Shown: one piece after another, positions 3,533 to 32,000 of the stretch | Layout of the letters: every line of letters starts with the position of its first letter | Position numbering within the stretch: position 1 is the first letter of the stretch | Origin: a bacterium | GTDB taxonomy: Bacteria > Bacillota > Clostridia > TANB77 > RGIG9151 | NCBI GenBank assembly: GCA_963635575.1 | Contig: CAVHFU010000010.1 | Location: 7,040 to 39,039, forward strand | DNA: 32,000 nt | Reading direction: 5' to 3' | Position numbers and translations under genes: made by a program | The notes under the pieces: model-generated | What the model was told of the DNA's origin: nothing | The model's input: only the letters and a program-made list of their open reading frames with translations | Databases searched by the model: none

Positions 3533-4258
3533 ATGGAAACTCAATTTTCAAGAACTGAGTTATTAATTGGCAAAGATGGAATAGAAAAATTAAATAATGC
3601 AAAAGTGGCTGTTTTTGGCGTAGGCGGAGTAGGTTCTTATGTTGTAGAAGGACTTGCACGATGCGGAATTGGGAACTTTATTTTGGTAGATAAAGATGAG
3701 GTAGCACTTAGTAATATAAATCGTCAAATTATAGCTACTCATAAGACTTTAGGTATGCCAAAAGTAAAAGTAGCTAAAGAGAGAATTTTAGACATAAATC
3801 CCAATGCAAATGTCGAAATATACCAAGAGTTTTTTATGCCTGAGACAAAAGGGATTATAGATAATTCTGTGTCGTATATAGTTGATGCGATAGATACCGT
3901 AACAGCTAAAATTGAATTAGTTATTCGTGCACGTGAGCTGAATGTACCGATAATATCAAGTATGGGAACAGGGAACAAATTAAATCCGACAATGTTTGAA
4001 GTTACAGATATTTATAAAACAAGTGTATGCCCACTAGCTAAAGTTATGAGAAAAGAACTTAGAACTCTTGGAATAGAGAAACTAAAAGTTGTTTACTCGA
4101 AGGAAGAACCGTTTAAAACAGGAGTTATAGGAGAAAGTGGAAAACAAGTTCCCGCAAGTGTGGCATTTGTACCATCAGTTGCCGGAATGATTATTGCAAG
4201 TGAAGTAGTAAAAGATATTTTGGAATATAAGAAAATAGAATCGATTAGTTTTTACTAA
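3533..4258 (+). CDS. tcdA: tRNA threonylcarbamoyladenosine dehydratase (ThiF/MoeB/HesA-family E1-like enzyme, TcdA/CsdL type)
   Basis: 241 aa. The Rossmann motif is VAVFGVGGVGSYVVEGLARCGIGNFILVDKDEVALSNINRQ. Size and absence of a rhodanese or MoeB C-terminal region fit TcdA. Confidence 0.75.
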   Translation: METQFSRTELLIGKDGIEKLNNAKVAVFGVGGVGSYVVEGLARCGIGNFILVDKDEVALSNINRQIIATHKTLGMPKVKVAKERILDINPNANVEIYQEFFMPETKGIIDNSVSYIVDAIDTVTAKIELVIRARELNVPIISSMGTGNKLNPTMFEVTDIYKTSVCPLAKVMRKELRTLGIEKLKVVYSKEEPFKTGVIGESGKQVPASVAFVPSVAGMIIASEVVKDILEYKKIESISFY

Positions 4259-4273
4259 GCGTACATATAGTCG

Positions 4274-4306
4274 AAAAAAAGGGAACGGACTTGACCGTTC
4301 CCTTTT
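4274..4306 (+). terminator. Rho-independent terminator after tcdA
   Basis: gggaacgg (4281-4288) pairs with ccgttccc (4295-4302). It is flanked by an A-tract and followed by ttttat. Confidence 0.8.
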
Positions 4307-4342
4307 ATAGTAGTAAAATTATGGTGCAAAGGAGATAGAAAA

Positions 4343-5584
4343 ATGTATAATAATTATGGAATTAGTGAGAAAGTTGTAGAATTTTCAAAATTGGCTATGG
4401 AAAAAATTAAACCTCAGTTTGAACATATAGAAAAGATTGCTGAGTATAATCAAATGAAGGTTTTGTCTGCTTTTAATAAGCATAAGATATCTGAGGCTCA
4501 TTTTATGGGAACGTCGGGTTATGGATATAACGATTTAGGAAGAGACGCTATAGAAGAGGTATATGCAGATGTGTTTGGTACAGAGGACGCATTAGTAAGG
4601 TCTCAATTTGTATCAGGTACTCATACTATATCTACCGCTCTTTTTGGAATTTTAAGGCCAGGAGACACATTACTAGCAATATCCGGTACACCATATGACA
4701 CATTACACGATGTTATAAATGGAGATGGAATAGGTTCGCTAAAGGATTTTGGCGTTAAATATGACGAAATTTCACTTGATGAAAATTCTGATATAGATTT
4801 AGAGAAAGTAATGAGTTATTTAAGAAGTAATACTGTAAAAATGATAGAAATTCAACGTTCTAAAGGATACGGTTGGAGAAAGACATTTTCAGCTGAATAC
4901 ATAAACTCGGTTATAAAGGAAATACATAGAGAATTCCCTAACGTAGTATGTTTTGTAGATAACTGCTACGGCGAGTTGGTTGATGAAATTGAACCATATG
5001 AAGCTGATTTGATTGCAGGTTCATTGATTAAGAACTTAGGTGGAGGCATAGTGCCGATCGGTGGATATGTTGCCGGAAAAGGAAAATATGTTGAGCAAGT
5101 TGCATATAGACTTACAAGCCCCGGAATAGGTAAAGAAGCAGGAGCAACATTGGGAATAAATAAACAATTTTTGCAAGGGTTATTCTTAGCTCCGCATGTT
5201 GTATCTCAAGCCGTAAAAACTGCTGTATTTTGTGCAGCAGTTATGGAAGAATTAGGCTATGAAGCTGAGCCAAAATCTAGCGAAATGAGACATGATATAA
5301 TTCAATCGGTAAAAATTGGAGACAGAGAAAAGTTAATTAAGTTCTGCCAAGGACTTCAAAGTGCATCACCTATTGATTCACATGCAGTACCATATCCATC
5401 TCCTATGCCGGGATATGCTGATGAAGTAATTATGGCTGCAGGAGCATTTAATCAAGGCTCTTCAATAGAACTTAGTGCCGATGCACCGATTAGAGAACCA
5501 TATATTATATATATGCAAGGTGGACTTACTTTTGAGTCTGGAAAGTTTGGAATTATGAAAGCAGTTCAAAGTATGATAGGATAA
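4343..5584 (+). CDS. Methionine gamma-lyase-family PLP enzyme (YnbB / 'aluminium resistance protein' family)
   Basis: 413 aa. The N-terminal pattern (NQMKVLSAFNKHKISEAHFMGTSGYGYNDLGRD...FGTEDALVR) is recognised from memory as the YnbB family. The assignment is by resemblance only. Confidence 0.65.
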   Translation: MYNNYGISEKVVEFSKLAMEKIKPQFEHIEKIAEYNQMKVLSAFNKHKISEAHFMGTSGYGYNDLGRDAIEEVYADVFGTEDALVRSQFVSGTHTISTALFGILRPGDTLLAISGTPYDTLHDVINGDGIGSLKDFGVKYDEISLDENSDIDLEKVMSYLRSNTVKMIEIQRSKGYGWRKTFSAEYINSVIKEIHREFPNVVCFVDNCYGELVDEIEPYEADLIAGSLIKNLGGGIVPIGGYVAGKGKYVEQVAYRLTSPGIGKEAGATLGINKQFLQGLFLAPHVVSQAVKTAVFCAAVMEELGYEAEPKSSEMRHDIIQSVKIGDREKLIKFCQGLQSASPIDSHAVPYPSPMPGYADEVIMAAGAFNQGSSIELSADAPIREPYIIYMQGGLTFESGKFGIMKAVQSMIG

Positions 5585-14398: not shown

Positions 14399-15910
14399 TT
14401 GACAATAAAACCTGAAGAGATCAGTGAAATATTGAGAAAACAAATTGAAAACTATGAAACTACAATAAAAACTGATGAAGTAGGATACGTAATTCAAGCC
14501 GGAGACGGTGTTGCTAAAGTCTATGGCTTAGACGATTGTATGTGTGGAGAGCTTATAGATTTCGGAGACGGAATCTTAGGAATGGCGATGAACCTTGAAG
14601 AGGACAGCGTCGGATGCGTTCTGCTTGGGGGAGAAAAAACTGTAAAAGAAGGAACAGAAGCTAAACGTACTGGCCGTTCGGTTAGTATTCCGGTTGGTGA
14701 AGGAATTATAGGAAGAGTTATTGATTCTATCGGCCGTCCGATTGATGGACTTGGCGATTATAAGGTCGAAGGATACCGTGATGTTGAATTCTTAGCACCT
14801 GGTGTTACAACTCGTGAATCAGTAAATAAACCATTACAAACAGGAATTTTAGCTATTGACTCAATGGTTCCGATTGGACGTGGCCAGAGAGAATTAATCA
14901 TAGGTGATAGGCAAACAGGTAAGACTGCTATTGCGATAGATACAATTATTAACCAAAAGGGACAAGATGTTATTTGTATATATGTTGCAATTGGTCAAAA
15001 AGGTTCATCTGTTGCAGGTGTAGTTGAAACATTAAAGAGGCATGGCGCTATGGATTATACAATAGTAGTATCTTCTACAGCGAGTGACCTTGCACCGGCA
15101 CAATATATCGCACCATATGCCGGATGTGCTATTGCCGAATACTTTATGTATGAAAAAGGCAAAGATGTTTTAATAGTATATGATGATTTATCTAAACACG
15201 CACAGGCTTATCGTGCAATGTCTTTGATACTTCGTCGTCCGCCTGGACGTGAAGCATATCCGGGAGATGTTTTCTATCTTCATTCAAGATTGCTTGAACG
15301 TGCTGCGAAAATGGATAAAGCGCATGGCGGTGGTTCTATAACTGCATTACCTATCATAGAGACATTGGCGGGAGATATTTCTGCATATATTCCGACAAAC
15401 GTTATTTCAATTACTGATGGCCAGATTTATCTAGAGAGTGAATTGTTCTTTGCCGGTCAAAGACCAGCGGTTAATGCCGGACTTTCTGTATCTCGTGTTG
15501 GTGGTTCAGCACAGATTAAAGCTATGAAGAAACTTGCAGGAAGAATAAGAATTGATTTGGCACAATATCGTGAACTTGCTGCGTTTGCACAGTTTGGTTC
15601 AGACTTAGATAAATTTACAAAGGATAAATTAACACAAGGTCAACGTACAGTTGAAACTTTAAAACAACAACAATATGCAACATTGCCGGTTGAAAAACAA
15701 GTTGTAATTTTGTATGCAGTTGTTAATGGACATTTATCTGACATAGAAGTAAAAGATGTTGGAAGATTTAATATGGGTCTTGTAAAGCACGTTGAAGAAA
15801 AGGCTCCTGAGATTTTACAATCTATATCTGAAACTAAGGAGTTGAAACCAGAAATGGAAGAAAAATTACTTAAAGCTATTGATGACTTTAAGACTTGGTT
15901 TAAGGTGTAG
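14399..15910 (+). CDS. atpA: F0F1 ATP synthase subunit alpha
   Basis: 503 aa with a TTG start after GGAGG. Walker A is GDRQTGKT, and the sequence is canonical alpha throughout. Confidence 0.97.
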
Positions 15911-15933
15911 ACAAATTTGTGAGGTGAAATAGG

Positions 15934-16800
15934 TTGGCTAATGCACGTGAGATTAAGCTTAGAATTAAGGGTATTAATGAAACTAAAAAAATAACTAAAG
16001 CTATGAAGCTAATATCTGCCTCTAAGCTTAAAAAAGCAAAGCTTATGCACGAGGCAACATTGCCGTTTTTTAAGAAGGTTCAAGACATAATGACTGATAT
16101 TTTGGCACATATGCCTGATATCGAGACTGTGTATTTTGATAAGAGAGAAAATAAGAAAAACAGAAAAATCGGATACATAGTTGTTGCATCTGATAAAGGG
16201 TTAAATGGTGGATTTAATCATAATATCATAAAACTTGCAGACAGCATAATCGACAAGAAAAATTCAGTTGTATTTCCAATAGGAAATGTTGTATTAAACC
16301 ACGTCTTAAAAGAGGGTTATGAAGTTATCCAAGATTTTGGGTATAATGGAGAAATAAATGATATAGCAGTTTCACAAGAAATAGCTAATCATTTAATAGA
16401 TATGTATAAATTAGAGATGATTGATGAATTACATCTTGTATTTACAGAAATGGAATCAGCACTTAGCTTAAAGCCAAGAGTAATTAAACTTTTGCCACTA
16501 GAAAAGGGAGAAGTTATAAATCCGGAAAAGAAAGCTGACGAGTTTATGAAATTAGAACTCGAGCCTACTCCGGAAACTGTACTTAATGTTTTGGCATCTA
16601 AGTATGTTAAAGGAATATTGTATTCAGGCTTGATAGAATCATACGTTAGTGAACATTCTGCTAGAATGAATGCAATGGATAATGCGACAAGCAATGCTGA
16701 AAAGATGATTAAGAAGCTTACATTAAATTATAATAGAGCAAGACAAGCTGCGATTACACAGGAAATTTCAGAAATTGTCGGTGGTGCGGCTAACGTTTAG
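15934..16800 (+). CDS. atpG: F0F1 ATP synthase subunit gamma
   Basis: 288 aa. The N-terminus REIKLRIKGINETKKITKAMKLISASKL and the C-terminus NRARQAAITQEISEIVGGA are canonical. Confidence 0.93.
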   Translation: MANAREIKLRIKGINETKKITKAMKLISASKLKKAKLMHEATLPFFKKVQDIMTDILAHMPDIETVYFDKRENKKNRKIGYIVVASDKGLNGGFNHNIIKLADSIIDKKNSVVFPIGNVVLNHVLKEGYEVIQDFGYNGEINDIAVSQEIANHLIDMYKLEMIDELHLVFTEMESALSLKPRVIKLLPLEKGEVINPEKKADEFMKLELEPTPETVLNVLASKYVKGILYSGLIESYVSEHSARMNAMDNATSNAEKMIKKLTLNYNRARQAAITQEISEIVGGAANV

Positions 16801-16810
16801 AAAGTAGTAG

Positions 16811-18223
<1,413 letters not shown>

Positions 18224-18246
18224 GTATTGTAGAAAGAGGGAAGACA

Positions 18247-18654
18247 ATGGCTAAAACTTTTAAATTTGAAGTTGTAACTCCTGAAAAAGTTTTCTATTCT
18301 AGCGATGTGGACATGATTATCTTTAATCGTGAAGATGGCGAAATGGGTGTTATGGCTGACCATATGCCAATGGTTGTTGCCGTAGATGTCGGGATGCTAA
18401 AAATTATAAAAGACGGAATGTATAAGTTTGCGGCGATTAGTGAAGGCTTTATTGAAATAACTGCTAAAGGCGTAACAGCCATTGTTGATGCAGCCGAATG
18501 GCCTGAGGATATAGATGTTGAAAGAGCCGAAAGATCTAAGAAAATAGCAGAGGATAAGTTAAAAGAGTATAGAAAAAATAAAGAGATGGAAACTTTATTA
18601 AAGCTTTCAATTGTAAGAGCTAATAACAGAATTAAAGTTGCTAAAAACCGCTAG
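18247..18654 (+). CDS. atpC: F0F1 ATP synthase subunit epsilon
   Basis: 135 aa. The N-terminal beta-sandwich pattern (FEVVTPEKVFYS...) and the operon position fit. Confidence 0.92.
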   Translation: MAKTFKFEVVTPEKVFYSSDVDMIIFNREDGEMGVMADHMPMVVAVDVGMLKIIKDGMYKFAAISEGFIEITAKGVTAIVDAAEWPEDIDVERAERSKKIAEDKLKEYRKNKEMETLLKLSIVRANNRIKVAKNR

Positions 18655-18661
18655 TTTTATG

Positions 18662-18690
18662 TTGAATAGTTAACGAAATTATGATACAAT
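18662..18690 (+). promoter_or_regulatory. Candidate sigma-A promoter for the 18749/19166 two-gene module
   Basis: TTGAAT (18662-18667), a 17-nt spacer, then TACAAT (18685-18690) with TG at 18682-18683 (extended -10). Confidence 0.55.
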
Positions 18691-18748
18691 TATTATAATT
18701 AGATGTGTATGTTACATAGAAACATATATATCGTAGGGGGGAATTAAT

Positions 18749-19135
18749 TTGAAGAAATGTATCAAAATATTTAGTTTAGTGATTACTTTAGCAATTATTT
18801 TTAGCAATTTATCATTTGCAAGTTCTTTCTCAGACTATGAAAATGTTGAAAATGATAAAACGGAAGAAATTGTGGGAACGATTGAAGAAGGTACCAAAAA
18901 AGCTGCTAATACAGTAAATAGCTTAGCATATACAGTAGTTGAACAAATAAGTGATAAAAGCCTTCCAGTATGCGTAATCTTAATACTTTGGGGCTCAATA
19001 CAATATTTTATCTTAGGTATAAGGAATTTATACAAGAAACGTCAAGGAATGTTACTAATGTGGGGAGCATTTACGTTCCTAGTTATAGCAAAAATAGTTA
19101 ATTTTGTATATTGGTTTTTTACTAAAATAGCATAG
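18749..19135 (+). CDS. Small secreted/membrane protein of unknown function (signal peptide plus two C-terminal TM helices)
   Basis: 128 aa with a TTG start after gtaggggg. The signal-like N-terminus is MKKCIKIFSLVITLAIIFSNLSFA. A hydrophilic segment follows, then LPVCVILILWGSIQYFILGI - RNLYKKRQG - MLLMWGAFTFLVIAKIVNFVYWFF. Confidence 0.6.
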   Translation: MKKCIKIFSLVITLAIIFSNLSFASSFSDYENVENDKTEEIVGTIEEGTKKAANTVNSLAYTVVEQISDKSLPVCVILILWGSIQYFILGIRNLYKKRQGMLLMWGAFTFLVIAKIVNFVYWFFTKIA

Positions 19136-19165
19136 ATATTTTAATTTAAACAGGGTGGTGAGGAT

Positions 19166-21229
19166 ATGAAAGTTTTATTTGCAATAAGTACTGAAAAAGG
19201 TGCTAACCAGATTATTGATTTTTATAAATCTACTTACGGTGAAAAGATTGAGGCAACGAAGGTATTCTTCTTTAGGGCACTGCTTGAGACACTCCGAAAA
19301 AATAAAGACTTTGATAGAATTGTCATTCACGAGGAATTAGAGCCAACAGGTTCTAAAAATCAAGACGCAATAGATAAATATCTTTTTAATAATTTAGATA
19401 AGGTTACTGATGAGGCAGGACGTGCGGACATTATTATTATATGTACTGAACGTAGACAACAAAATGATAAATTCGTTAAAACTTTATTTAACTTAGGAAT
19501 TTATAATGTTTTAACCGGGCAGGATAGAACTGTTGGAAAAGTATCTGAACTTATAAACAGACCTAGAACTAAAAAAGATGCGAAGATGTTTGTTGATGCA
19601 GATTTGACAGAAAATCCGTATGAGGCTGTTGATGCTGTTGATGAAATGGAATTAAGAAACACCATAAAATATTTTGAGAAGAATATTTTTAGTGAGGAAA
19701 AAATTGTTAACGGATTTGACAGTTTATATGAACAATATAATTTTGAAAAATTAAAACAGATTGTACCGTTTTTACCTGAAAAAGCAAGGGACGTATTACA
19801 ACAAAAATCTAGTAAATATGTTGCACTAATGAGTTATACTCCAGAGAAAAATGGCGGCAAAAAGCACAGAGATGAACCGGAAAGGGTAAAAGTAGTAGAA
19901 GTTCCAGTTTATATAAATAGAGTGGAAAGGATTGAGCAGGAGCCATCTAGGCCGATAGAAAAAGAGACATCTGCTCCTCAAATAAAGGAAAATGTGTTAG
20001 AAAAACCAAAGATTGAAATGCCCAAGGCAGAATCAAAAGTTGAGCCTAAAGTAGAACCTAAGGTTGAAATACCAAAGGTGGAAATAGTGCCACCGAAGCC
20101 AGAACCAAAGGTTGAAGTACCAAAGGTAGAAATAGTAGAACCACCGAAGGTAGAACCGAAGGTTGAACCTAAAGTTGAGCCAAAGGTTGAAATACCAAAG
20201 GTAGAAATAGTAGAACCACCGAAGGTTGAGCCCGTAGTACAACCTAGAGTGGAAGAACCTCGAATTGTTAGACCGACAGTACCACAACCTGAGGTGACTC
20301 AAGCACCTAGGTACCAACCACCAACACGTATGCCATCAGTAGAGCCACAAATTCAAACTGTAACTCAAGTCATCGAAAAAGAGGTAATACGTGAAGTATC
20401 CGAGGCACCAAGGGATTATAAGAAAGTTGTTGCCTTCATCGGTGCACATAAAACCGGTTCTACATTCTTAATTACTTCGGTTGCAACTGCACTTTCAAAT
20501 AAAGGTGTTAAAGTGGCTATTTTAGATTTAACTAAGAATAAAGATACGTATACAATATTTACCGGCGATGATGGAGAAGAAAGAGATGTCGCAGGAAATA
20601 GCTTAAGTAACCTTGTAATTGGTCAAAATCGTCCGTTAAAAGCAGGAAATATAAGTATATACACCGGTGTCCCAAGGACAGATAGAATTCCTAAGTTTGA
20701 TGTATATAAAGTTATAGAAACAGCAAAAAAAGATAATTCAGTTGTTTTGATTGATTGCGACTTTGTAACATCTCAAGAGGTATTTAGATATGTACAAACA
20801 ATATATGTAGTACAAGATATGGATATATTAAATGTTCTTCCGATAACAATGTTCTTAAAAGAATTAAAGAGTAACGAAATTGATTTGAGCAAGGTATCTA
20901 TAATAGTTAATAAACATTTAAAAATGTCTATTAGTGCTACTAAATTGGTTGAGATGTTGACATTCTATGTTAATCCGGAAGTTTCAGTTTTTGAGGAATT
21001 ATTGCCAAAGAACGTAAGAAGATTTATTGTTCCGTTTGATGAACAAAACTATTTAAGATATATGGAAAATTTATGTTTACGTAAGATGAACTTCTCCGGT
21101 TTCTCGGATGAGTTTAAACAAGCGATTGCAATTATTGTTCAAGACATCTTTCCAATCGGTGGATCTGGACCGATGCATAGACAACAGGCTGAAGATAGTT
21201 TTATAAAGAGTATATTTAGAAAAAGGTAA
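19166..21229 (+). CDS. Multidomain protein: receiver-like N-domain, Pro/Lys/Val/Glu repeat linker, ParA/MinD-like C-domain with a degenerate P-loop
   Basis: 687 aa with RBS ggtggtgagg. The N-terminal ~120 aa has a flavodoxin/REC-like alternation (MKVLFAIS...DRIVIHEELEP...DIIIICTE). The middle carries (E)PKVE repeats. The C-domain has KKVVAFIGAHKTGSTFLITSVATALSNKGVKVAILDLT and VVLIDCDF, resembling ParA/MinD/CpaE Walker A, A' and B. Confidence 0.7.
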   Translation: MKVLFAISTEKGANQIIDFYKSTYGEKIEATKVFFFRALLETLRKNKDFDRIVIHEELEPTGSKNQDAIDKYLFNNLDKVTDEAGRADIIIICTERRQQNDKFVKTLFNLGIYNVLTGQDRTVGKVSELINRPRTKKDAKMFVDADLTENPYEAVDAVDEMELRNTIKYFEKNIFSEEKIVNGFDSLYEQYNFEKLKQIVPFLPEKARDVLQQKSSKYVALMSYTPEKNGGKKHRDEPERVKVVEVPVYINRVERIEQEPSRPIEKETSAPQIKENVLEKPKIEMPKAESKVEPKVEPKVEIPKVEIVPPKPEPKVEVPKVEIVEPPKVEPKVEPKVEPKVEIPKVEIVEPPKVEPVVQPRVEEPRIVRPTVPQPEVTQAPRYQPPTRMPSVEPQIQTVTQVIEKEVIREVSEAPRDYKKVVAFIGAHKTGSTFLITSVATALSNKGVKVAILDLTKNKDTYTIFTGDDGEERDVAGNSLSNLVIGQNRPLKAGNISIYTGVPRTDRIPKFDVYKVIETAKKDNSVVLIDCDFVTSQEVFRYVQTIYVVQDMDILNVLPITMFLKELKSNEIDLSKVSIIVNKHLKMSISATKLVEMLTFYVNPEVSVFEELLPKNVRRFIVPFDEQNYLRYMENLCLRKMNFSGFSDEFKQAIAIIVQDIFPIGGSGPMHRQQAEDSFIKSIFRKR
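20030..20235 (+). repeat. In-frame tandem repeat array encoding PKVE-type repeats
   Basis: A 12-nt periodic unit (cc[at]aa[ag]gt[tag]ga[ag]) is iterated. There is also a higher-order 75-nt direct repeat: 20106-20151 versus 20181-20226, identical except for one base (gaagtacc versus gaaatacc). Confidence 0.85.
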
Positions 21230-24569: not shown

Positions 24570-26195
24570 ATGGATGAGTTAAATCAAAACGATAATTTAG
24601 TAAATGAAGAGGAAATGCCTAAAAAGAAGAGTAAGCTTGGAATGATACTAGGAATAATAGGCGGGGTAGTAGTCCTTGGAATAGTCATTTTATTAATATG
24701 TGTATTTTCATCAGTAAAATACAGATATTTTGGGTTAGTAGGTAATAAATTTGCGACTCTTACGAGTTACGTAGAGGATTTTGAAGAGGGCGTGTTTGGC
24801 AGAATTTTAAATACTAACTTTAATAATAAACTCACCATTAATACAGAGGTTAATGCTAAGGTAGAAACTGAGGACAAAGAAATATCTGCTTGGCTTAACG
24901 GATTTAATAGTGTCAAGTTAATTGCAAATGAAAATTCAGATATCAAAAATAATTATTTTGATTCAGATATAAAAATCGCATTAAATGGAGAGGACTTTAT
25001 TCTTGCAAATTTACTTAGAAAAGATGATACTTTTTTGGCAAATGTAGATAAAATAACTGATGGGTACATATCTGCAGATAATACTAAACTTTCTGAATTA
25101 TGGCAAAAGATAGGATATGAAGGACCTGAGAAATTTACATCACAAGTAGAATTTATTGAAGGATTTAAATTCTCAAGGAGTGAAAAAGCAGAATTATATA
25201 AAGCATTACTTAGGGTTGGAGATGCTTTTACTAAAGCTTTTGGAAAAGAAGATTTCTCTGAAGGAAAAGAAACAATTACTTATAATACAAAGTCTATTGA
25301 TGCAAAATATATTGATTTTAAGATGAACTCTGTTGAAATGAATAATGGCGTAATTCGTGCATTAGAACAATTATTAAAAGAAGACAAGGCAATAGACGTT
25401 TTGCTAAAATTATCGAATGCTTATGATAATATGTATATTCAAGCAGGTTATGATGTTGAACCGTTTACTCGTGATGAATTTGTTGATGCAATTGAGTATA
25501 TTTTAGAAGAAGTTAAAAAGCTTGAGTTTAGTGAAGAAGACGGAATGATAATAAGGCTTTACTATGAAGGAAATTCGATTGTAAAGGCTGAGGTATTTAA
25601 TATGAATTATACAAGCAGTGTATTAAAGCTTGTAATGATTGATGATGGTAGAGAAAAGTATTATGAATATAATAATGGTCTTATGAACTATGTAGATAAT
25701 GTATATATGGCTGAAAAAGATATTTGGACTCATACTATTGATGTAAATTATATTGATTATGAGACAGGCGAGTTTTTAGAAGATTATAGTGATACTATTG
25801 TTTTAACATTAAATTCTGCACAAAAAGATAACACTAAGTTAGTTATGACTTCGGATAACGGGAACTTTGAATATGTTTTAGAGGGAATAATTGACGGCAA
25901 TAAAAAGAATGTTAATTACAGTATGATTGCGTCTGATGAAACATCAACTAATAATATTAATATAAAAGTTGAGATTGTTGAAAAGACAGAATTTGAAGAA
26001 AAGAGTGTAGAAAATTCATTTGATACGTCTACTGCTACTGATGAAGAAATTAATGCAAAGAAAGAACAAGTTCTAAAAAATTGGAATGATTTTTCGAGTA
26101 AAAACGAAAATAAAATTAGTCAGTTATATACTGCATTATCTATTTATGTTGGTTCTATGACCCAAATGGATGGCGATTACACGGCTAATGAGTAA
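24570..26195 (+). CDS. Hypothetical single-pass membrane protein
   Basis: 541 aa with RBS aaaggagg. One N-terminal TM (LGMILGIIGGVVVLGIVILLICVF) is followed by a large Asn/Asp/Glu-rich extracytoplasmic region. I recognised no motifs. Confidence 0.6.
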   Translation: MDELNQNDNLVNEEEMPKKKSKLGMILGIIGGVVVLGIVILLICVFSSVKYRYFGLVGNKFATLTSYVEDFEEGVFGRILNTNFNNKLTINTEVNAKVETEDKEISAWLNGFNSVKLIANENSDIKNNYFDSDIKIALNGEDFILANLLRKDDTFLANVDKITDGYISADNTKLSELWQKIGYEGPEKFTSQVEFIEGFKFSRSEKAELYKALLRVGDAFTKAFGKEDFSEGKETITYNTKSIDAKYIDFKMNSVEMNNGVIRALEQLLKEDKAIDVLLKLSNAYDNMYIQAGYDVEPFTRDEFVDAIEYILEEVKKLEFSEEDGMIIRLYYEGNSIVKAEVFNMNYTSSVLKLVMIDDGREKYYEYNNGLMNYVDNVYMAEKDIWTHTIDVNYIDYETGEFLEDYSDTIVLTLNSAQKDNTKLVMTSDNGNFEYVLEGIIDGNKKNVNYSMIASDETSTNNINIKVEIVEKTEFEEKSVENSFDTSTATDEEINAKKEQVLKNWNDFSSKNENKISQLYTALSIYVGSMTQMDGDYTANE

Positions 26196-26482: not shown

Positions 26483-27841
26483 ATGGTTGAAAAAAATAAA
26501 GAATATATAACCAATATACTGGATATGACTCATGAAGGAGCCGGCGTGGCAAAAATTGACGGGTTTGCTGTATTTATTGATGGTGCAATTACGGGTGAAA
26601 CTGTAAAAATAAAAGTGGTAAAGGTTACAAAGAACTTTGCTTACGGAAAGTTACTTGAGATTATAGAAGCCTCCGGGAATAGACGACCTGTTAGTTGTGA
26701 GAATTTTAAAAAATGCGGTGGATGTTCACTACTTCATATGTCATATCCGGCAACTCTTGAATTTAAGCGTAAAGTGGTTAGAGATTCGTTTAAGAGAATC
26801 GGGCATAGAGATGTTGAAGTTGAGGAAACATTAGGAATGGAAGAACCTTATGCGTACAGAAATAAGGTTCAATTTCCTGTTGGCGAGAAAGATGGACGTG
26901 TTGTGACCGGTTTTTTCGCAGGACGTACTCACGATATTGTACCAATAACGGATTGTTCAATTCAGTCAAGAATTGCAAATAAATTGATTAACAATGTAAG
27001 GGAATTTTTTAGAGACAATAACATTTCGGCATATAACGAAAAAACAGGCAAAGGATTTGTAAGACATGTTATAATAAGGAATTCGGAAAAGTCCGGAGAA
27101 ATTATGCTTATTTTGGTTACTAATGGCGAAGAGTTCAAACTAAAGGATAAATTTGTAGAGTTTATGACAGATAAATGTAGCAGAGTTAAGTCGATTATGC
27201 AAAATATAAACACCAAGAATACAAATGTCATTTTAGGTGAGAAAAATATAAGATTATATGGAAAAGATACAATAAAAGACTACATAGGAGAGTTTGTGTT
27301 TAATATTTCGCCTAATTCGTTTTTCCAAGTAAATGCAAGACAAACAGAAGTGTTGTATTCAAAAGTTCTTGAATTTGCGGGACTTACTGGTAATGAAATG
27401 GTATTTGATTTGTATTGCGGAATAGGAAGTATATCTCTATTTTTAGCTAAAAAAGCTAAAAGAGTGTATGGAGTTGAGGTGGTAAAACCGGCAGTACAGA
27501 ATGCAAAGGAAAATGCAAAAGAAAATGGAATTACGAATACACTATTTTACTGTGGGAAAGCTGAAGAAGTAGTGCCGAGGTTATACGATGAGGGAATAAC
27601 TGCCGATGTTGTGGTTGTAGACCCACCAAGAAGCGGGTGCGATAAGGTTTTAATTGATACTGTCTTGAAGATGAAGCCAAAGCGAATTGTGTATGTAAGT
27701 TGTAATCCCGGAACTTTGGCTAGAGATGTGGAAATGCTGGATGGGTATGAAGTGAAGAAGGTTCAACCGGTGGATATGTTCCCGTGGAGCTTTCACGTCG
27801 AGACGGTCGTTTTGCTGTCAAAAGTGAACACACCTAAGTAA
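26483..27841 (+). CDS. rlmD: 23S rRNA (uracil-C5)-methyltransferase RlmD/RumA family (TRAM domain, 4Fe-4S cluster, SAM MTase)
   Basis: It has a TRAM domain N-terminus, the Cys cluster CENFKKCGGCSLLHM, the SAM motif DLYCGIGSISL, DPPRSG and the nucleophile motif YVSCNP. ATG 26483 follows GAGGGG. The last ~15 codons have atypical GC-rich codons (see findings). Confidence 0.88.
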   Translation: MVEKNKEYITNILDMTHEGAGVAKIDGFAVFIDGAITGETVKIKVVKVTKNFAYGKLLEIIEASGNRRPVSCENFKKCGGCSLLHMSYPATLEFKRKVVRDSFKRIGHRDVEVEETLGMEEPYAYRNKVQFPVGEKDGRVVTGFFAGRTHDIVPITDCSIQSRIANKLINNVREFFRDNNISAYNEKTGKGFVRHVIIRNSEKSGEIMLILVTNGEEFKLKDKFVEFMTDKCSRVKSIMQNINTKNTNVILGEKNIRLYGKDTIKDYIGEFVFNISPNSFFQVNARQTEVLYSKVLEFAGLTGNEMVFDLYCGIGSISLFLAKKAKRVYGVEVVKPAVQNAKENAKENGITNTLFYCGKAEEVVPRLYDEGITADVVVVDPPRSGCDKVLIDTVLKMKPKRIVYVSCNPGTLARDVEMLDGYEVKKVQPVDMFPWSFHVETVVLLSKVNTPK

Positions 27842-27860
27842 GATAAGCTATTGAAATCAA

Positions 27861-27920
27861 AGGCTTCTCTGGGTTCTATCGTTAAACGGTAGAAATGAAC
27901 CTGGAGAGGCCTTAGTTTTT
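27861..27920 (+). terminator. Long stem-loop terminator after rlmD
   Basis: aggcttctctgggttc (27861-27876) pairs with gaacctggagaggcct (27897-27912), 16 bp including 3 G-U pairs, followed by tagttttt. Confidence 0.65.
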
Positions 27921-28029
27921 ATCAATGTTATCGGTCACGTGGAAACATATCCAGAATAGAGGGTTGACACTAGGGGATTGATAACAGACCAAGTGAACCC
28001 TAAAAGGGGTTCAATATTTTAAGTTGATA

Positions 28030-28058
28030 TTGCCAATCCCAACCAAACGGTTTATATT
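28030..28058 (+). promoter_or_regulatory. Possible promoter for the SymE-like gene
   Basis: TTGCCA (28030-28035), a 17-nt spacer, then TATATT (28053-28058). This would give a ~155-nt leader containing the hairpin gatgatg-N9-catcatc (28103-28125) and the 13-mer at 28157. Confidence 0.3.
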
Positions 28059-28156
28059 GATAATAACTTCATCTGATTCATACCCGTACTTCGTCTTATT
28101 TCGATGATGTGTCCCATGCATCATCACAAATCATTTTTACGTAGCATAAGGCTACG

Positions 28157-28169
28157 GTCCTGCACCAGG
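28157..28169 (+). repeat. Copy 1 of the 13-nt motif GTCCTGCACCAGG
   Basis: Exact match to 28827-28839. It lies 51 nt upstream of the ATG at 28220. Confidence 0.6.
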
Positions 28170-28219
28170 TTCGGTGCGATTATCAATTATTCAAGAATCT
28201 AATAGTAGAGGAGGATTTA

Positions 28220-28696
28220 ATGTTCACAAGAAAAGAACAGAGTTTATTTACTGACCCTTATTTCAAGATCGTAAGGGAAGAACAGCAGTATATTGAGGTT
28301 CAGTCTATCAACACCGGACACTGCTGGAATATTTTCAAGAATCAATTTGAACCTATCAGCAAGGTAAAACTGTATCACAAGCATAAAAGCACAGATCAGT
28401 ATTATCACGAGCATAGGAACTGCAGAACGGTTGCTGAGGCCGTTAAGGAAATAAAAGAGCATGATGAACATGTTCTTCAGGAGGCGGAGCGAAAGAAAGA
28501 GTGTAAAGAAAGCACTCCAAAGCAAGAAAGTCGCCATTTGAAAGTTTACACGACGACTGGCTATAATTACAAATCAACACCGATGATTATGCTGAAAGGC
28601 GAATGGCTTAGAAGCTGGGGATTTGATACGGGAGTTGAAGTCGACGTTATCTGTGAAGGTGATGGAAGGCTTACAATTAAAGTGGTGAATGGGTGA
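28220..28696 (+). CDS. SymE-like (AbrB/SpoVT-fold) domain protein with a His-rich N-terminal extension
   Basis: 158 aa with RBS GGAGGA at 28210-28215. The C-terminal RHLKVYTTTGYNYKSTPMIMLKGEWLRSWGFDTGVEVDVICEGDGRLTIKV follows the SymE-toxin-family pattern (...L.GKWLeeaGF..G..v.V....g.L.I). I did not recognise the N-terminal ~100 aa (KLYHKHKSTDQYYHEHRNC). Confidence 0.6.
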   Translation: MFTRKEQSLFTDPYFKIVREEQQYIEVQSINTGHCWNIFKNQFEPISKVKLYHKHKSTDQYYHEHRNCRTVAEAVKEIKEHDEHVLQEAERKKECKESTPKQESRHLKVYTTTGYNYKSTPMIMLKGEWLRSWGFDTGVEVDVICEGDGRLTIKVVNG

Positions 28697-28703
28697 TGAT
28701 ATG

Positions 28704-28739
28704 GCGTTACGGTGAAATAAACTGTAACGCTATATTTTT
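28704..28739 (+). terminator. Rho-independent terminator after the SymE-like gene
   Basis: gcgttacgg (28704-28712) pairs with ctgtaacgc (28722-28730), 9 bp with one G-U, followed by tatattttt. Confidence 0.6.
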
Positions 28740-28752
28740 AACATTTTGTAAA

Positions 28753-28772
28753 TTTGGTATGAGAATACCAAA
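28753..28772. promoter_or_regulatory. Perfect palindrome TTTGGTAT-N4-ATACCAAA abutting the -35 box (candidate operator)
   Basis: tttggtat (28753-28760) and ataccaaa (28765-28772) are exact reverse complements. The palindrome ends 5 nt upstream of the TTGACT -35 element. Confidence 0.35.
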
Positions 28773-28777
28773 ATATA

Positions 28778-28806
28778 TTGACTAGGAATAATTCTGATGA
28801 TATAAT
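28778..28806 (+). promoter_or_regulatory. Near-consensus sigma-A promoter with an extended -10
   Basis: TTGACT (28778-28783), a 17-nt spacer, then TGaTATAAT (28798-28806). The ATG of the next gene is at 28851. Confidence 0.7.
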
Positions 28807-28826
28807 ATCATTAAAAGGTTTAGAAT

Positions 28827-28839
28827 GTCCTGCACCAGG
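28827..28839 (+). repeat. Copy 2 of the 13-nt motif GTCCTGCACCAGG
   Basis: Exact match to 28157-28169. It overlaps the SD (AGGAGG 28837-28842) of the 28851 gene. Confidence 0.6.
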
Positions 28840-28850
28840 AGGAACTGACG

Positions 28851-30464
28851 ATGAACAAGAATGATGTAAGAATTGATAGAATATACTCCTTCTTCAATGC
28901 AATAAGAGGGAACAATACACCAAGTGAATACCAGAGCGTTCTAGCTATATTAAAAAAAGTCATGGTGCTGCAGAAGTGCGCATCCAATGAAATGGATTAC
29001 GATGAATTGTACCAGCTAATGATGAGCGTAGCTGAGGATTTTGAAATCGGAAACCCATTCCCTGATAAGGAAAGATTTGTAGATATCTATAGAACGTTAC
29101 AAGGGTTTGATGAAGTGACGTGGACAGATATTTTGGAATATGGTGATTCGAGAGCAAAGTTCAGAGCGCCGGAATCCGTTATTGATGAAATGGAGAATAA
29201 CTTTACTAATGGAGTGCGGGAAGTCCTAATCGCTGAAGCTGAGAAGTTTTCACCTTTCTTAGAAAGAATAATTGAAACTCATTGCGAGGCTCATTTTACT
29301 CTGACAACAATGGATAATTTGTACTACAAGATTTTAACAGAAATGTTCGATGACAATAAAATGGTAGATGTTAAGCAAACGAACATTTACCAATATGAAT
29401 TCACATCTGAACGTTTCGACCTGATCCTTGCGGTTCCGGTATTTGGCGTAAGGGATAAGGCGGATGAAGGCTCAGAGTTCATCTGTAGAGAATATGACAT
29501 GATTGCAGCAGAGAATCTGGCTCTTCATTTAAGAAGCGAGGGTGTGTTGTCTATCGTGCTTCCAGCCAAAATTACATTTGGCAGCGGGAATGTAAAAGAA
29601 TTAAGAGAGTTTCTACAGTCAATGTACTGCCTAAAAGAGATTGCAGAACTCCCTGCGGGAATCTTTGAAAATACCGGCGTGAAGACATTCCTCTTCAAGA
29701 TAACAACTGGAAGAACGGATGAGGTCACTATTAAACGTTTTGTATTTGAAGATGAGAATGCTCGTAAGAGTGGCAATAAAAAGCTTGTTCTTCAGGACGA
29801 TACCTTTGTTCTTGAAGATGAATTAACGGATATGGGTGACTGGAATGTTGACCGTATCTTTGAATCTCAGGATGAGGATTGGATTAAGTTTCAGGAGTCA
29901 AATGTGAAGAAGCAGGAGCTTGGAACTGTTGCAACAATCTTCAGAGGAAAATCTGTAAATCGCAAAGAACCGAATGGAAGTATTGGAGTTGTTAATATTT
30001 CCAATATAGGCGAATACGAGATTGACTATTCTTCACTCGACCATATTGAGGAAGAGGAACGCAAGGTAACGAATTATATCCTTCAGACAGGGGATCTACT
30101 GATTCCGGCCAGGGGTACTGCTATTAGAGTTGCTATTTTTGAAGAACAGCCGTATCCGTGCATTGCATCATCAAATGTGATTGTAATCAGAGCAACAGAT
30201 GTGAGCTTATCTACAACTTTCTTGAAGTTGTTCTTTGATAGTCCGCTTGGAAGAAAGATGCTTGTTACAAGGCAGCAAGGAACAGCTGTAATGAACATCA
30301 GCTACAAAGAGCTGAATAATATCGAAATCCCGCTTCCATCAATAGATGAGCAGAATTCGATTGCAGAAGAATATACAAGAGAGCTTGAAATCTATAAGAA
30401 GTCGATCCAGGCTGCAGAAAACAGATGGAACTCGACGTTAGCTAGACTTCAAGGAAGAATATAA
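28851..30464 (+). CDS. HsdM-like pseudo-methyltransferase fused to a single HsdS-type target recognition domain
   Basis: 537 aa. The N-terminal two thirds are colinear with gamma-class N6-adenine MTases: FRAPESVIDEM in place of YYTPRxVVxLM, VLIAEAEKFSPFL in place of VYDPACGSGGFL, FDLILAVPVFG in place of FDxVLANPPFG, then GVLSIVLPAKITFGSG...IAELPAGIFENTGVKTFLFKI. The C-terminal third is a Methylase_S-type TRD plus conserved helix (ELGTVATIFRGKS...LQTGDLLIPARGT...IEIPLPSIDEQNSIAEEY). Confidence 0.75.
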   Translation: MNKNDVRIDRIYSFFNAIRGNNTPSEYQSVLAILKKVMVLQKCASNEMDYDELYQLMMSVAEDFEIGNPFPDKERFVDIYRTLQGFDEVTWTDILEYGDSRAKFRAPESVIDEMENNFTNGVREVLIAEAEKFSPFLERIIETHCEAHFTLTTMDNLYYKILTEMFDDNKMVDVKQTNIYQYEFTSERFDLILAVPVFGVRDKADEGSEFICREYDMIAAENLALHLRSEGVLSIVLPAKITFGSGNVKELREFLQSMYCLKEIAELPAGIFENTGVKTFLFKITTGRTDEVTIKRFVFEDENARKSGNKKLVLQDDTFVLEDELTDMGDWNVDRIFESQDEDWIKFQESNVKKQELGTVATIFRGKSVNRKEPNGSIGVVNISNIGEYEIDYSSLDHIEEEERKVTNYILQTGDLLIPARGTAIRVAIFEEQPYPCIASSNVIVIRATDVSLSTTFLKLFFDSPLGRKMLVTRQQGTAVMNISYKELNNIEIPLPSIDEQNSIAEEYTRELEIYKKSIQAAENRWNSTLARLQGRI

Positions 30465-30476
30465 GGAGGTCGTTTA

Positions 30477-32000
30477 ATGTTAGGAGCGATTATCGGTGAC
30501 ATTGTGGGGTCACGTTTCGAATGGAATAATAATAGGAGTAAGGATTTTGAATTTCTCACATATAAGTGCTTTCCCACAGACGACAGCATTATGAGTCTGG
30601 CAGTGGCACAGGCAATTCTGGTTAGCAAGCCAGATCATAGTGACTTGTCTAAAAATGCTGTTGAATGCATGCAGGCGGTTGGAAGAAATTATCCAAACTG
30701 TGGTTATGGAGGAAACTTCTATGATTGGATCTTCTCAGATAGCCCTGAGCCATATAACAGCTATGGCAATGGCGCAGCGATGAGAGTGAGTGCTGCGGGA
30801 TTTGCAGCAGAAAGCTTAGAGGAAGTAAAACTGCTTTCTAAGTTAGTTACAGAAGTGAGCCACAATCATCCAGAAGGTATCAAAGGTGCCGAGGCTACAG
30901 CAGTTGCAATATATATGGCGAAAACCGGTAGCAACATGCTGGAGATAAGAGATTATATTGACAAGAACTATTATCCAATGGATTTCACACTGGATGAAAT
31001 AAGAGATACGTATCAGTTCAACGAAACGTGCCAGGATACAGTGCCTCAGGCATTGACAGCATTCTTCGAATCAACTGATTTTGAAGATGCAATTAGAAAT
31101 GCTATTTCCATTGGCGGAGACAGTGATACAGTTGCAGCTATTTGCGGCGGTGTTGCGGAAGCATACTACGGTATCCCTACAGATATCAGGAAACATGCGT
31201 TAACATTCCTGGACCAGCAATTGATGCAGCTGCTTATTTTGTTTGAAAATAAGTATCCGCCAATTATGGAGAAAAAACGTGATGACATGAGCGTTAGCAT
31301 CAAACGTTCTGCCAAGAAAAAGGTAAAGACGGGAGGTCGTGAAAAGATGATTCAGTCTGCTTCAGCTACTGCAGATCAGGAACTGAAAGAATCAATTCCT
31401 GAGAATGAAGAAACAACAAGCAAGAAGTTATTTGCTCATCTTTATGAGGCCTGCAATATACTTCGCGGACCTATTAATCAGGACGAATTCAAAGATTACG
31501 TTACACCAATCTTGTTCTTTAAGAGAATTAGTGATGTGTATGATGAAGAAACACAAGATGCTTTGGAGGCTTCAGGTGGGGACGAGGAGTTCGCTGCCTT
31601 TGATGAGAATCACAGTTTTATTATTCCAGATGGTTGCCATTGGAACGATCTCAGAAATGCAAGCAAGAATGTGGGTCTTATTATTGCAAAGGCTATGAAT
31701 GGTATTGAACGAGCAAATCCTGAAACGTTGAGTGGCGTATTTTCAAGTTTTGATGGTGTTACATGGACAGATAAATCCAAGCTGACAGATGAAAGATTAA
31801 AAGACCTGATCGAGCATATGTCTAGCTTGAAGGTTGGAAATAAGAATTATAGCGCAGATGTAATGGGAGATGCATACGAGTATCTCATAAAGAAATTTGC
31901 TGATCTTTCAAAGAAGAATGCAGGTGAATATTACACTCCTAGAACAATTGTCAAGCTTATGGTAATGCTTCTGGATCCGAAACCTGGTGACACGGTTTAT
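30477..32000 (+). CDS. hsdM: ADP-ribosylglycohydrolase domain fused in frame to the type I restriction-modification methyltransferase HsdM (3' end lies outside the window)
   Basis: This ORF is not in the supplied track because it is open at the window edge. I translated codon by codon from ATG 30477, with AAGGAGG at 30463-30469, and found 508 sense codons with no stop. Residues 1-~262 read MLGAIIGDIVGSRFEW...FPTDDSIMSLAVA...SIGGDSDTVAAICGGVAEAYYG (ARH family). A basic linker follows. From ~31422 the sequence is LFAHLYEACNILRGPINQDEFKDYVTPILFFKRISDVYDEE...GDAYEYLIKKFADLSKKNAGEYYTPRTIVKLMVMLLDPKPGDTVY (HsdM_N plus the start of N6_Mtase). Confidence 0.8.
   Translation, partial: MLGAIIGDIVGSRFEWNNNRSKDFEFLTYKCFPTDDSIMSLAVAQAILVSKPDHSDLSKNAVECMQAVGRNYPNCGYGGNFYDWIFSDSPEPYNSYGNGAAMRVSAAGFAAESLEEVKLLSKLVTEVSHNHPEGIKGAEATAVAIYMAKTGSNMLEIRDYIDKNYYPMDFTLDEIRDTYQFNETCQDTVPQALTAFFESTDFEDAIRNAISIGGDSDTVAAICGGVAEAYYGIPTDIRKHALTFLDQQLMQLLILFENKYPPIMEKKRDDMSVSIKRSAKKKVKTGGREKMIQSASATADQELKESIPENEETTSKKLFAHLYEACNILRGPINQDEFKDYVTPILFFKRISDVYDEETQDALEASGGDEEFAAFDENHSFIIPDGCHWNDLRNASKNVGLIIAKAMNGIERANPETLSGVFSSFDGVTWTDKSKLTDERLKDLIEHMSSLKVGNKNYSADVMGDAYEYLIKKFADLSKKNAGEYYTPRTIVKLMVMLLDPKPGDTVY

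Follow-up and report, generated by a model that had tools for sequence, protein, structure and literature searches.

What is encoded at the end of this stretch of DNA: an undescribed conflict system, or a known restriction system with unusual parts? The stretch, referred to below as the window, comprises 32,000 nucleotides (nt) of a clostridial genome (GenBank assembly GCA_963635575.1, contig CAVHFU010000010.1, positions 7,040 to 39,039). An earlier reading of the sequence, referred to as the original prediction, proposed that three genes near the end of the window form a single undescribed module derived from restriction-modification (R-M) systems. The first encodes a SymE-like protein; the second, a fusion of a dead HsdM with half of an HsdS subunit, here called pMS; and the third, a fusion of an ADP-ribosylglycohydrolase (ARH) domain with HsdM. 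Gene calls and Pfam domains confirmed that these genes follow rlmD consecutively and on the same strand. The domain contents, the lost active site of the second gene, the 12-nt gap between the second and third genes, and the position at the edge of an island were borne out as well.

Our analysis supports the proposed interpretation only in part and gives a different answer as to what the genes belong to. The third gene very probably encodes the M1 subunit of a published two-methylase type I family, with the ARH domain attached to M1 and with pMS as the first gene. The core system has been described before; new here are the ARH domain on M1, pMS, and the pairing of pMS with a conserved palindrome. 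This pairing is the most interesting content of the locus and lies just outside the observations of the original prediction.

Relationship to two-methylase type I systems

In the two-methylase family, an NPPF-type M1 makes N6-methyladenine (m6A) and an NPPY-type M2 makes N4-methylcytosine (m4C); the methylases act in a heterodimeric M1M2S assembly, and the gene order is M1-M2-S-R (Morgan 2016, PMC5100572). The structure of the PacII M1M2S complex is available (7VRU/7VS4; PMC9613975). A search of 185,579 species genomes, anchored on the second HsdM (M2), returned 80 loci with 63 to 96% identity. They were found in Bacillota, Alphaproteobacteria, Vampirovibrio/Gastranaerophilales, Synergistaceae, Thermoguttaceae, Saccharibacteria, and other groups. 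In every locus with enough upstream sequence, a paralogous HsdM (M1) was located directly 5' of M2; it was cut down to a C-terminal remnant in L029 and L048 (the prefix L denotes a related locus). The upstream paralogue was 60 to 97% identical to the M part of the ARH-HsdM fusion and only about 42% identical to the M2 anchor.

On long contigs, the genes were arranged in the order pMS, an optional extra gene, ARH-HsdM, the second HsdM (about 496 amino acids [aa]), HsdS, and HsdR (971 aa). In relatives, HsdR was often followed by a tyrosine recombinase and a spare hsdS, which may serve phase variation. The exception was L002, where an insertion follows hsdS and HsdR is absent from the 7.4 kb of downstream sequence available. 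The nearest relative of the window, L017, is 80% identical in nucleotide sequence across positions 27752 to 32000 and continues into M2 before its contig ends.

Comparison with PacII assigned the two methylases to the two chains of the complex. The M part of ARH-HsdM, represented by P0006, scored 438 bits against PacII M1 (7vru_A) and 398 bits against 7vru_B. The downstream HsdM had its best match, at 545 bits, in PacII M2 (7vru_B). In the alignments, chain A carries the motif pair AGEF/NPPF and chain B carries AAEF/NPPY; the corresponding pairs in the related loci are AGEY/NPPF for M1 and AQEF/NPPY for M2. The M1 of the window contains NAGEYYTPR, and the window ends before motif IV, which reads NPPF in full-length relatives (80 to 91% identity).

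Membership in the MADS systems was rejected on the scores of MAD5 (55 bits versus a cutoff of 400) and MAD2 (32 versus 720), and PADLOC reported only generic similarity to S and M subunits. Extra open reading frames (ORFs) inside two-methylase loci were noted by the authors who described the family (PMC5100572). Neither an ADP-ribosyl hydrolase nor a dead M/S gene is mentioned in PMC5100572 or PMC9613975, and no description of either was found in the literature searched. The claim of an undescribed R-M-derived system thus fails for the core; what is new to the literature searched is the pair of additions, ARH and pMS.

An ADP-ribosylglycohydrolase domain on M1

The ARH domain occupies aa 1 to about 260 of the third protein and is joined to the start of M1 by a flexible, charged linker (aa ~260 to 315). 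Translation of this protein starts at position 30477, following the pMS stop at 30464, and the 12-nt gap holds a GGAGG ribosome-binding site. The fusion is 805 to 806 aa long in more than 100 homologues with 80 to 91% identity, which come from Holdemanella, Enterococcus cecorum, Clostridioides difficile, Listeria innocua, and many gut metagenomes. The same architecture is present in loci of Bacillota, Synergistaceae, Desulfovibrio, Saccharibacteria, and Deferribacteraceae. The fusions form a single cluster at 50% identity, embedded in the known M1 family.

Among 53 distinct ARH sequences, residues D35, D36, D217, and T218 were invariant, and E14 and D215 were nearly so. Between the window and L017, the ratio of nonsynonymous to synonymous substitution rates (dN/dS) was 0.02 for the ARH domain, with synonymous sites near saturation. 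By these criteria, the domain looks catalytically competent.

The same ARH subtype (50 to 67% identity; P0244 to P0317) was also found with other partners. They include fusions to flavodoxin, DUF1810, SseB, and a Ser/Thr kinase with dockerin, a 1,595-aa protein containing a helix-turn-helix domain, and proteins with several unassigned C-terminal regions. Because one subtype is joined to so many unrelated partners, ARH behaves as a portable module. In L016 (positions 3971 to 5048), M1 is a separate 465-aa protein preceded by ARH in two pieces, ORFs of 182 and 186 aa; decay or an assembly error could account for the break, which is consistent with ARH being dispensable.

What would such a domain do on a methylase subunit? 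The role that we favor is removal of ADP-ribose that the ADP-ribosyltransferases of phages or rival elements would attach to the restriction complex, or to the DNA of its sites, so that restriction keeps working. Even so, we rate this countermeasure as unlikely. Alternatively, ARH could read and erase a self-regulatory switch in the manner of DraT/DraG, or it could be an immunity domain against ADP-ribosylating toxins, in the latter case with no role in restriction. Some ARH proteins, Tri1 among them, confer immunity, the domain had an NCBIfam match of the Tri1 type, and fusion to many partners is typical of a portable, self-sufficient module. However, the fusion is intact, its dN/dS is very low in the comparison with L017, and its architecture is kept across many taxa, which argues for a function tied to M1; moreover, no cognate transferase was found in the loci. 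We therefore consider a switch or immunity role rather improbable.

pMS, a predicted pseudoenzyme with a conserved recognition domain

In pMS, LIAEAEKF stands in the place of methyltransferase motif I (DPxCGxGG), and VPVF in that of motif IV (NPPF/Y). The replacement is a property of the whole family: all 39 distinct members (43 to 100% identity, from several phyla) have a conserved LI[AP]E[AG]EKF in place of motif I, and the motif IV Asn and the GxG expected of an active amino-methyltransferase are absent from 39 of 39 sequences. The HsdS-like part is equally incomplete. It comprises one Methylase_S match and one C-terminal helix instead of the two target recognition domains (TRDs) and two coiled coils of a full HsdS.

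The TRD is the most conserved domain of pMS, with 56 to 67% identity in comparisons where the N-terminal domain retains 10 to 28%. This pattern is the reverse of that in ordinary HsdS subunits. For pMS as a whole, dN/dS between the window and L017 was 0.03, again with synonymous sites near saturation. These features suggest that pMS is a conserved, long-standing pseudoenzyme with motifs of its own, a single TRD, and a dimerization helix.

We considered whether pMS and ARH-HsdM are decayed remnants of hsdM and hsdS. This was ruled out by the dN/dS values and by the conserved substitute motifs found throughout the pMS family. The original prediction had named an ordinary hsdMSR locus downstream, with the visible genes as its decayed remnants, as one outcome that would overturn it. 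The first half of that description applies, since hsdMSR genes do follow in relatives; the second does not, and with dN/dS of 0.02 to 0.03 the unusual genes are conserved and functional rather than junk, as had been proposed.

Residues 352 to 528 of pMS, comprising the TRD and the C-terminal helix, align with residues 13 to 188 of Esub1 from Streptococcus pyogenes (111 bits; about 45% identity, read from the alignment). Esub1 is a homodimer in crystals and in solution, with two identical TRD-like heads joined by the C-terminal helix, and its authors proposed a transcription factor-like role for it (PMC11754733). By analogy, pMS would form a homodimer with two identical DNA-reading heads. A search with the TRD alone for stand-alone Esub1-like genes returned only pMS fragments. 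One locus from Oscillospiraceae (L079, positions 1246 to 2979) encodes, 5' of ARH-M1, a 577-aa M/half-S fusion whose methylase domain seems intact (N6_Mtase, 90 bits); this protein could be a relative of pMS that is active.

A palindrome paired with pMS

Upstream of pMS, the window contains a palindrome, TTTGGTAT-N4-ATACCAAA, that ends 5 nt before a promoter. All 16 specified bases of the palindrome are identical in most pMS loci, and the promoter elements TTGACA and TG-ATAnnT are conserved in the alignment of pMS upstream regions. With up to 2 mismatches allowed, 38 of about 46 loci with pMS had the palindrome, mostly 93 to 130 nt before the pMS start, and none of the 44 loci without pMS had it. 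It was kept even where pMS is only 44 to 52% identical (Paenibacillus, Brevibacillus, and Vampirovibrio-type loci) and where the surroundings of the palindrome have diverged.

The motif was rare elsewhere: 1.385 Mb yielded a single off-target match, with 2 mismatches. When metagenomes were scanned blindly for the palindrome, pMS followed in the correct orientation in 16 of 120 sampled occurrences, and no other neighbor family was recurrent.

The geometry of the site, TGGTA-N6-TACCA, would fit two identical TRDs placed about one helical turn apart. We propose that a pMS dimer binds this bipartite palindrome 5 nt before the -35 element of a strong operon promoter and that bound pMS autoregulates transcription of the whole restriction operon. 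A controlling role is suggested because an invariant palindrome pairs with pMS, the TRD is the most conserved domain, the protein resembles the Esub1 homodimer, and the geometry is suitable. Judged by these comparisons of sequence, the chances that pMS binds the palindrome and regulates the operon are about even. Should pMS act in this way, repression would be its most likely effect, because the promoter is strong and type I methylases have a wide footprint; as a claim of its own, repression is advanced tentatively and may well prove wrong.

A different role for pMS would be that of a decoy or sensor for DNA-mimic anti-restriction proteins of the Ocr and ArdA types. As a copy of the DNA-binding groove of the M2S core, the dimer would soak up inhibitors or trigger neighboring effectors, and the palindrome would be bound by some other factor or serve as a parking site. 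PrrC-type backup effectors are tied to type I enzymes, and the toxin-like genes (DUF2971, HNH, and MazF/PemK) found between pMS and M1 in other loci recall them; the window, on the other hand, has no effector at this position. The retention of the M, TRD, and coiled-coil layout after loss of catalysis suits a decoy, as does the binding of the homologue Esub1 by the phage protein paratox (PMC11754733). However, the paratox-binding motif, R-x-hydrophobic-x-R, is not conserved in pMS, which has ERKVTN instead, and a decoy leaves the invariant promoter palindrome and the conservation of the TRD above all other domains unexplained. We judge it quite improbable.

Even less can be said for pMS as an alternative specificity adaptor, with (pMS)2 recruiting HsdR to a fixed sequence or to modified phage DNA independently of methylation, as in type IV systems. 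Its layout does mimic the M2S1 core with a fixed, conserved TRD, and its cotranscription with the restriction genes is suggested by the 12-nt gap. Yet the sole conserved target that we found lies in the promoter of the locus itself, and a restriction complex directed there would, if unprotected, be suicidal. Furthermore, pMS is missing from a third of otherwise identical cassettes, and there is no evidence of contact between pMS and HsdR. This role is very unlikely.

The explanation that we prefer for the locus as a whole is a two-methylase cassette with an ARH-bearing M1, autoregulation by pMS through the palindrome, and a SymE-like accessory gene; we think it somewhat likelier to be right than wrong. 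A number of observations weigh against it. Between 5 and 8 pMS loci have no recognizable palindrome in the available sequence, and across distant loci the distance from the palindrome to the -35 element ranges from 5 to about 13 nt. Such variable spacing is atypical of a phase-dependent activator and compatible with regulation in either direction. The co-occurrence of the palindrome and pMS could partly reflect common descent through physical linkage, and the protein that binds the predicted operator could be another conserved one, such as M1, M2, HsdR, or a host factor. An AlphaFold model of pMS, built with 28 close homologues, reached a pLDDT of 48.5, which is too poor to use.

The ARH part of the explanation meets objections as well. 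No ADP-ribosyltransferase gene was found among the neighboring genes examined, which are only partly annotated, and no known phage counterpart for ARH was identified; the coupling of activity to ADP-ribosylation status that the original prediction suggested is speculative. M1 loci without ARH are common, and ARH appears dispensable for the basic function for this reason. Finally, the window ends inside M1, so that M2, S, and R of this genome are assigned from relatives. A fuller version of the explanation, in which a dead type I M/S fusion has been domesticated as a transcription factor that sets the establishment or level of its restriction operon and the ARH tethered to M1 is an anti-anti-restriction device that clears ADP-ribose from the enzyme or its target DNA once phages have injected ADP-ribosyltransferases, is a long shot.

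Independent occurrence of ARH and pMS

Do the additions depend on each other or on the core? Among 67 evaluable loci, 33 had both ARH and pMS, 15 had ARH alone, 10 had pMS alone, and 9 had neither. The odds ratio of about 2 is too weak to indicate dependence, particularly as many loci are related by descent, and dependence between ARH and pMS was rejected. Because all four combinations occur, ARH and pMS are optional. The unit is thus M1-M2-S-R, to which ARH and pMS are added independently.

The original prediction had treated the three genes as one module and suggested examining the neighborhoods of ARH-HsdM homologues for pMS and the SymE-like gene. The 67 loci above and about 65 pMS loci showed no obligate co-occurrence: ARH and pMS appear in every combination, and SymE-like genes are present in about 7 of the pMS loci. 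An autonomous, ADP-ribosylation-dependent conflict module independent of classical hsdMSR is therefore highly improbable and largely refuted by this neighborhood analysis, for even though the unusual domain combinations are real and conserved and SymE-like genes recur beside pMS in seven loci, M2 always follows ARH-HsdM and is itself followed by S and R where the contig reaches (except in L002), ARH-HsdM is one 50%-identity cluster inside the known M1 family, and the neighbors examined include no transferase partner.

The position between pMS and M1 is a variable slot. In other loci it holds DUF2971, HNH nuclease, or MazF/PemK genes, or genes for proteins of about 210 aa and of 784 aa without assignment (Table 1); in the window it is empty. 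The slot genes are candidate defense or toxin genes within the restriction operon, under the same predicted operator, and they fit the general habit of defense genes embedding in type I loci.

The SymE-like gene

The first 100 aa of the SymE-like protein have no domain assignment, and the SymE/AbrB-fold domain is at its C terminus. The protein scored 32 against the NCBIfam SymE equivalog cutoff of 132, below the level of a full-length SymE toxin. The original prediction had grouped this gene with the other two in one module. Because a terminator-like hairpin and a near-consensus promoter stand between it and pMS, the SymE-like gene is predicted to be a transcription unit of its own, not cotranscribed with pMS. 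A similar inverted repeat was seen by eye at the equivalent place in L017 in the upstream alignment.

In L018 to L021, the left-end segment of the island directly abuts the operator; the piece of about 750 bp that carries the SymE-like gene is therefore an insertion. SymE-like sequences were found just 5' of the operator in L017, where the frame is shifted, and in L068, where it is split into two frames. In L052, L162, L163, and L212, a SymE-only gene of 72 to 80 aa separates the operator from pMS. Most cassettes have no such gene. The SymE-like gene thus appears to be an optional accessory of a kind that recurrently lodges at the cassette.

An exact 13-nt direct repeat, GTCCTGCACCAGG, is present at positions 28157 to 28169 and 28827 to 28839, where its chance expectation is zero. 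One copy is 51 nt before the SymE-like start, and the other is in the 5' leader of pMS, overlapping its ribosome-binding site. The repeat was considered as a shared operator and rejected, as it is confined to the window genome and L001, without conservation at the other loci.

The island edge and its surroundings

The window up to position 27750 is ordinary low-G+C chromosome, encoding ThiI, methionine gamma-lyase, a histidine kinase, a LonC-like protease, ATP synthase subunits, MutS2, and a pseudouridine synthase. No tRNA genes were found within the 32-kb window. Two large chromosomal ORFs, at 19166 to 21229 (687 aa) and 24570 to 26195 (541 aa), had no Pfam match at an E value of 1e-5 or below; the second has a membrane anchor-like stretch at its N terminus. 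Near position 27500, the G+C content rises from a level of about 0.30-0.35 to about 0.40.

Nucleotide homology to L017 (blastn) begins at position 27752, in the last 90 nt of rlmD. The left-end segment that starts here closes with a hairpin at 27994 to 28013, and positions 27767 to 28001, approximately, are common to L011, L012, L018, and L021 despite differing rlmD genes. At least 8 different hosts have an rlmD orthologue immediately 5' of the cassette; in L016, L017, L018, L021, L035, L052, and L054, orthologues with 43 to 50% identity directly precede the same cassette. The 3' end of rlmD appears to be a recurrent integration site, because homology starts inside its last 90 nt and divergent rlmD orthologues adjoin the cassette.

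In loci with rlmD upstream, the first cargo met beyond rlmD is always the two-methylase cassette. The end of the window covers the rlmD-proximal edge of an integrated defense island, of which the cassette is the first cargo. Nothing shows that the "leading edge" of the original prediction is a conjugative leading region; this is the cargo end close to the attachment site. The cargo past the restriction genes in relatives consists of Wadjet or of DUF2800/PD-(D/E)XK and PolA-like genes. In Robertmurraya (L035, positions 15811 to 21033), Wadjet genes JetA, JetB, and JetC are located directly 3' of the two-methylase cassette, likewise beside rlmD. A large serine recombinase is located ahead of pMS in L002 and L003.

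A megablast search of phage and plasmid collections with positions 28000 to 32000 gave no match, nor did a search of the phage collection with the pMS protein. Against plasmids, pMS matched only distant (below 30% identity) M-S fusions and ordinary S subunits. In IMG/VR, it was found on just 2 contigs, and the one examined was not clearly phage. These searches gave no support for a prophage origin. By exact look-up, the rlmD, SymE-like, and pMS proteins of the window were found on only one other contig, L001 (5 kb).

Table 1. Coordinates of the features discussed, in window positions except for the slot genes, which are given in positions of their own loci
Feature	Coordinates	Strand	Description
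rlmD/rumA-type 23S rRNA (uracil-5)-methyltransferase gene	26483..27841	+	Pfam TRAM and tRNA_U5-meth_tr; island inserted in its 3' end
Left-end segment of island	27752..28013	+	Gives last ~90 nt of rlmD frame and ~170 nt more
SymE-like gene	28220..28696	+	158 aa; Pfam SymE_toxin aa 105-154, E 7.7e-9, 35.9 bits versus cutoff 29
Intrinsic terminator-like hairpin and T-run	28698..28740	+	-22.5 kcal/mol; z-score -9.0; none of 200 shuffled sequences as stable
Predicted operator	28753..28772	.	20-bp palindrome TTTGGTAT-GAGA-ATACCAAA; only exact match in window
Near-consensus sigma-70-type promoter	28778..28806	+	TTGACT, 17 nt, TATAAT; 11 of 12 matches; TG extension before -10
pMS (gene 2)	28851..30464	+	537 aa; weak N6_Mtase match aa 186-314; Methylase_S aa 350-506
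ARH-M1 (gene 3)	30477..32000	+	508 codons without stop; runs off window end
ARH-M1 domains			ADP_ribosyl_GH aa 1-233 (E 5e-32, 112 bits versus cutoff 26); HsdM_N aa 320-447; start of N6_Mtase
Slot genes in other loci	L004 9019-9984; L022 6596-7582; L052 3539-7575; L034 2170-2640; L062 6912-7577; L068 6938-7567		Between pMS and M1

Comparison with known systems

The closest known relatives of the locus are the PacII-type m6A/m4C systems. Judged by the relatives of the window, it would share with them tandem HsdM paralogues, an NPPF-type M1 upstream of an NPPY-type M2, and the S and R genes that follow. It differs from them in the N-terminal ARH domain of about 260 aa and the linker on M1, in the dead M/half-S gene that heads the operon with its own predicted operator, and in the minor motif variants AGEY and AQEF for AGEF and AAEF. 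Anaerobes of the human gut commonly carry such loci, which probably hinder their genetic manipulation.

The ARH domain matches the family of DraG, ARH3, and Tri1 (PF03747) over the full length of the Pfam model, with metal-binding and catalytic residues present. In contrast to those ADP-ribosylhydrolases, it is fused to a DNA methyltransferase subunit, and it is only distantly related to solved or named members (best PDB match, 59 bits). The locus is also unlike DarTG, since its hydrolase has the ARH fold and not that of a macrodomain, and neither DarT nor a macrodomain was found in the window or among the annotated neighbors of related loci. Widespread in gut Bacillota and beyond, ARH-M1 joins classical restriction with the chemistry of ADP-ribose, in which conflicts between phages and hosts are also fought, and it points to a possible countermeasure against phage ADP-ribosyltransferases.

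Escherichia coli symE, which adjoins hsdS, offers a precedent for the SymE-like gene. As in SymE/SymR (PMC1891008), an AbrB-fold SymE domain at the C terminus is encoded beside restriction genes, and SymE-family genes had already been linked to restriction islands in 2007 (PMC1891008). Unlike in E. coli, just the last 50 aa match, and the protein has an extra N-terminal part of 100 aa.

Esub1 (SpyM3_0890; PDB 8VSQ/8VSR) is similar to pMS in that the TRD and helix of pMS align over its full length. Esub1, however, is a stand-alone 23-kDa protein whose gene lies away from restriction genes, whereas pMS adds a 340-aa pseudo-HsdM in front and heads a type I operon; the paratox-binding helix motif of Esub1 is another point of difference, as described above. 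If pMS is indeed a regulator, this suggests a function for the orphan family of Esub1, itself the target of a prophage protein.

Type I enzymes are thought to be controlled mainly post-translationally. Only one small repressor, RptR, has recently been tied to type I systems. RptR is the 9-kDa product of the first gene, an autorepressor, of an island with type I R-M and DarTG2 (PMC12255303), and that island shows that ADP-ribosylation modules can lodge inside type I loci. Like RptR and the C proteins of type II systems, pMS is encoded by the first gene of a restriction operon with a conserved palindromic site at its own promoter, and, as for RptR, gene and site are conserved together across taxa. 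The two proteins are otherwise dissimilar. RptR is a small helical protein that recognizes TAGCTA repeats over the -10 box, whereas pMS is a 62-kDa fusion of a dead methylase and part of an S subunit whose predicted site is upstream of the -35 element; they share no homology, and the resemblance is one of functional analogy only. If the proposed role of pMS is correct, a dead methylase/TRD fusion that serves as the regulator of its own operon would represent a new way of building a transcription factor.

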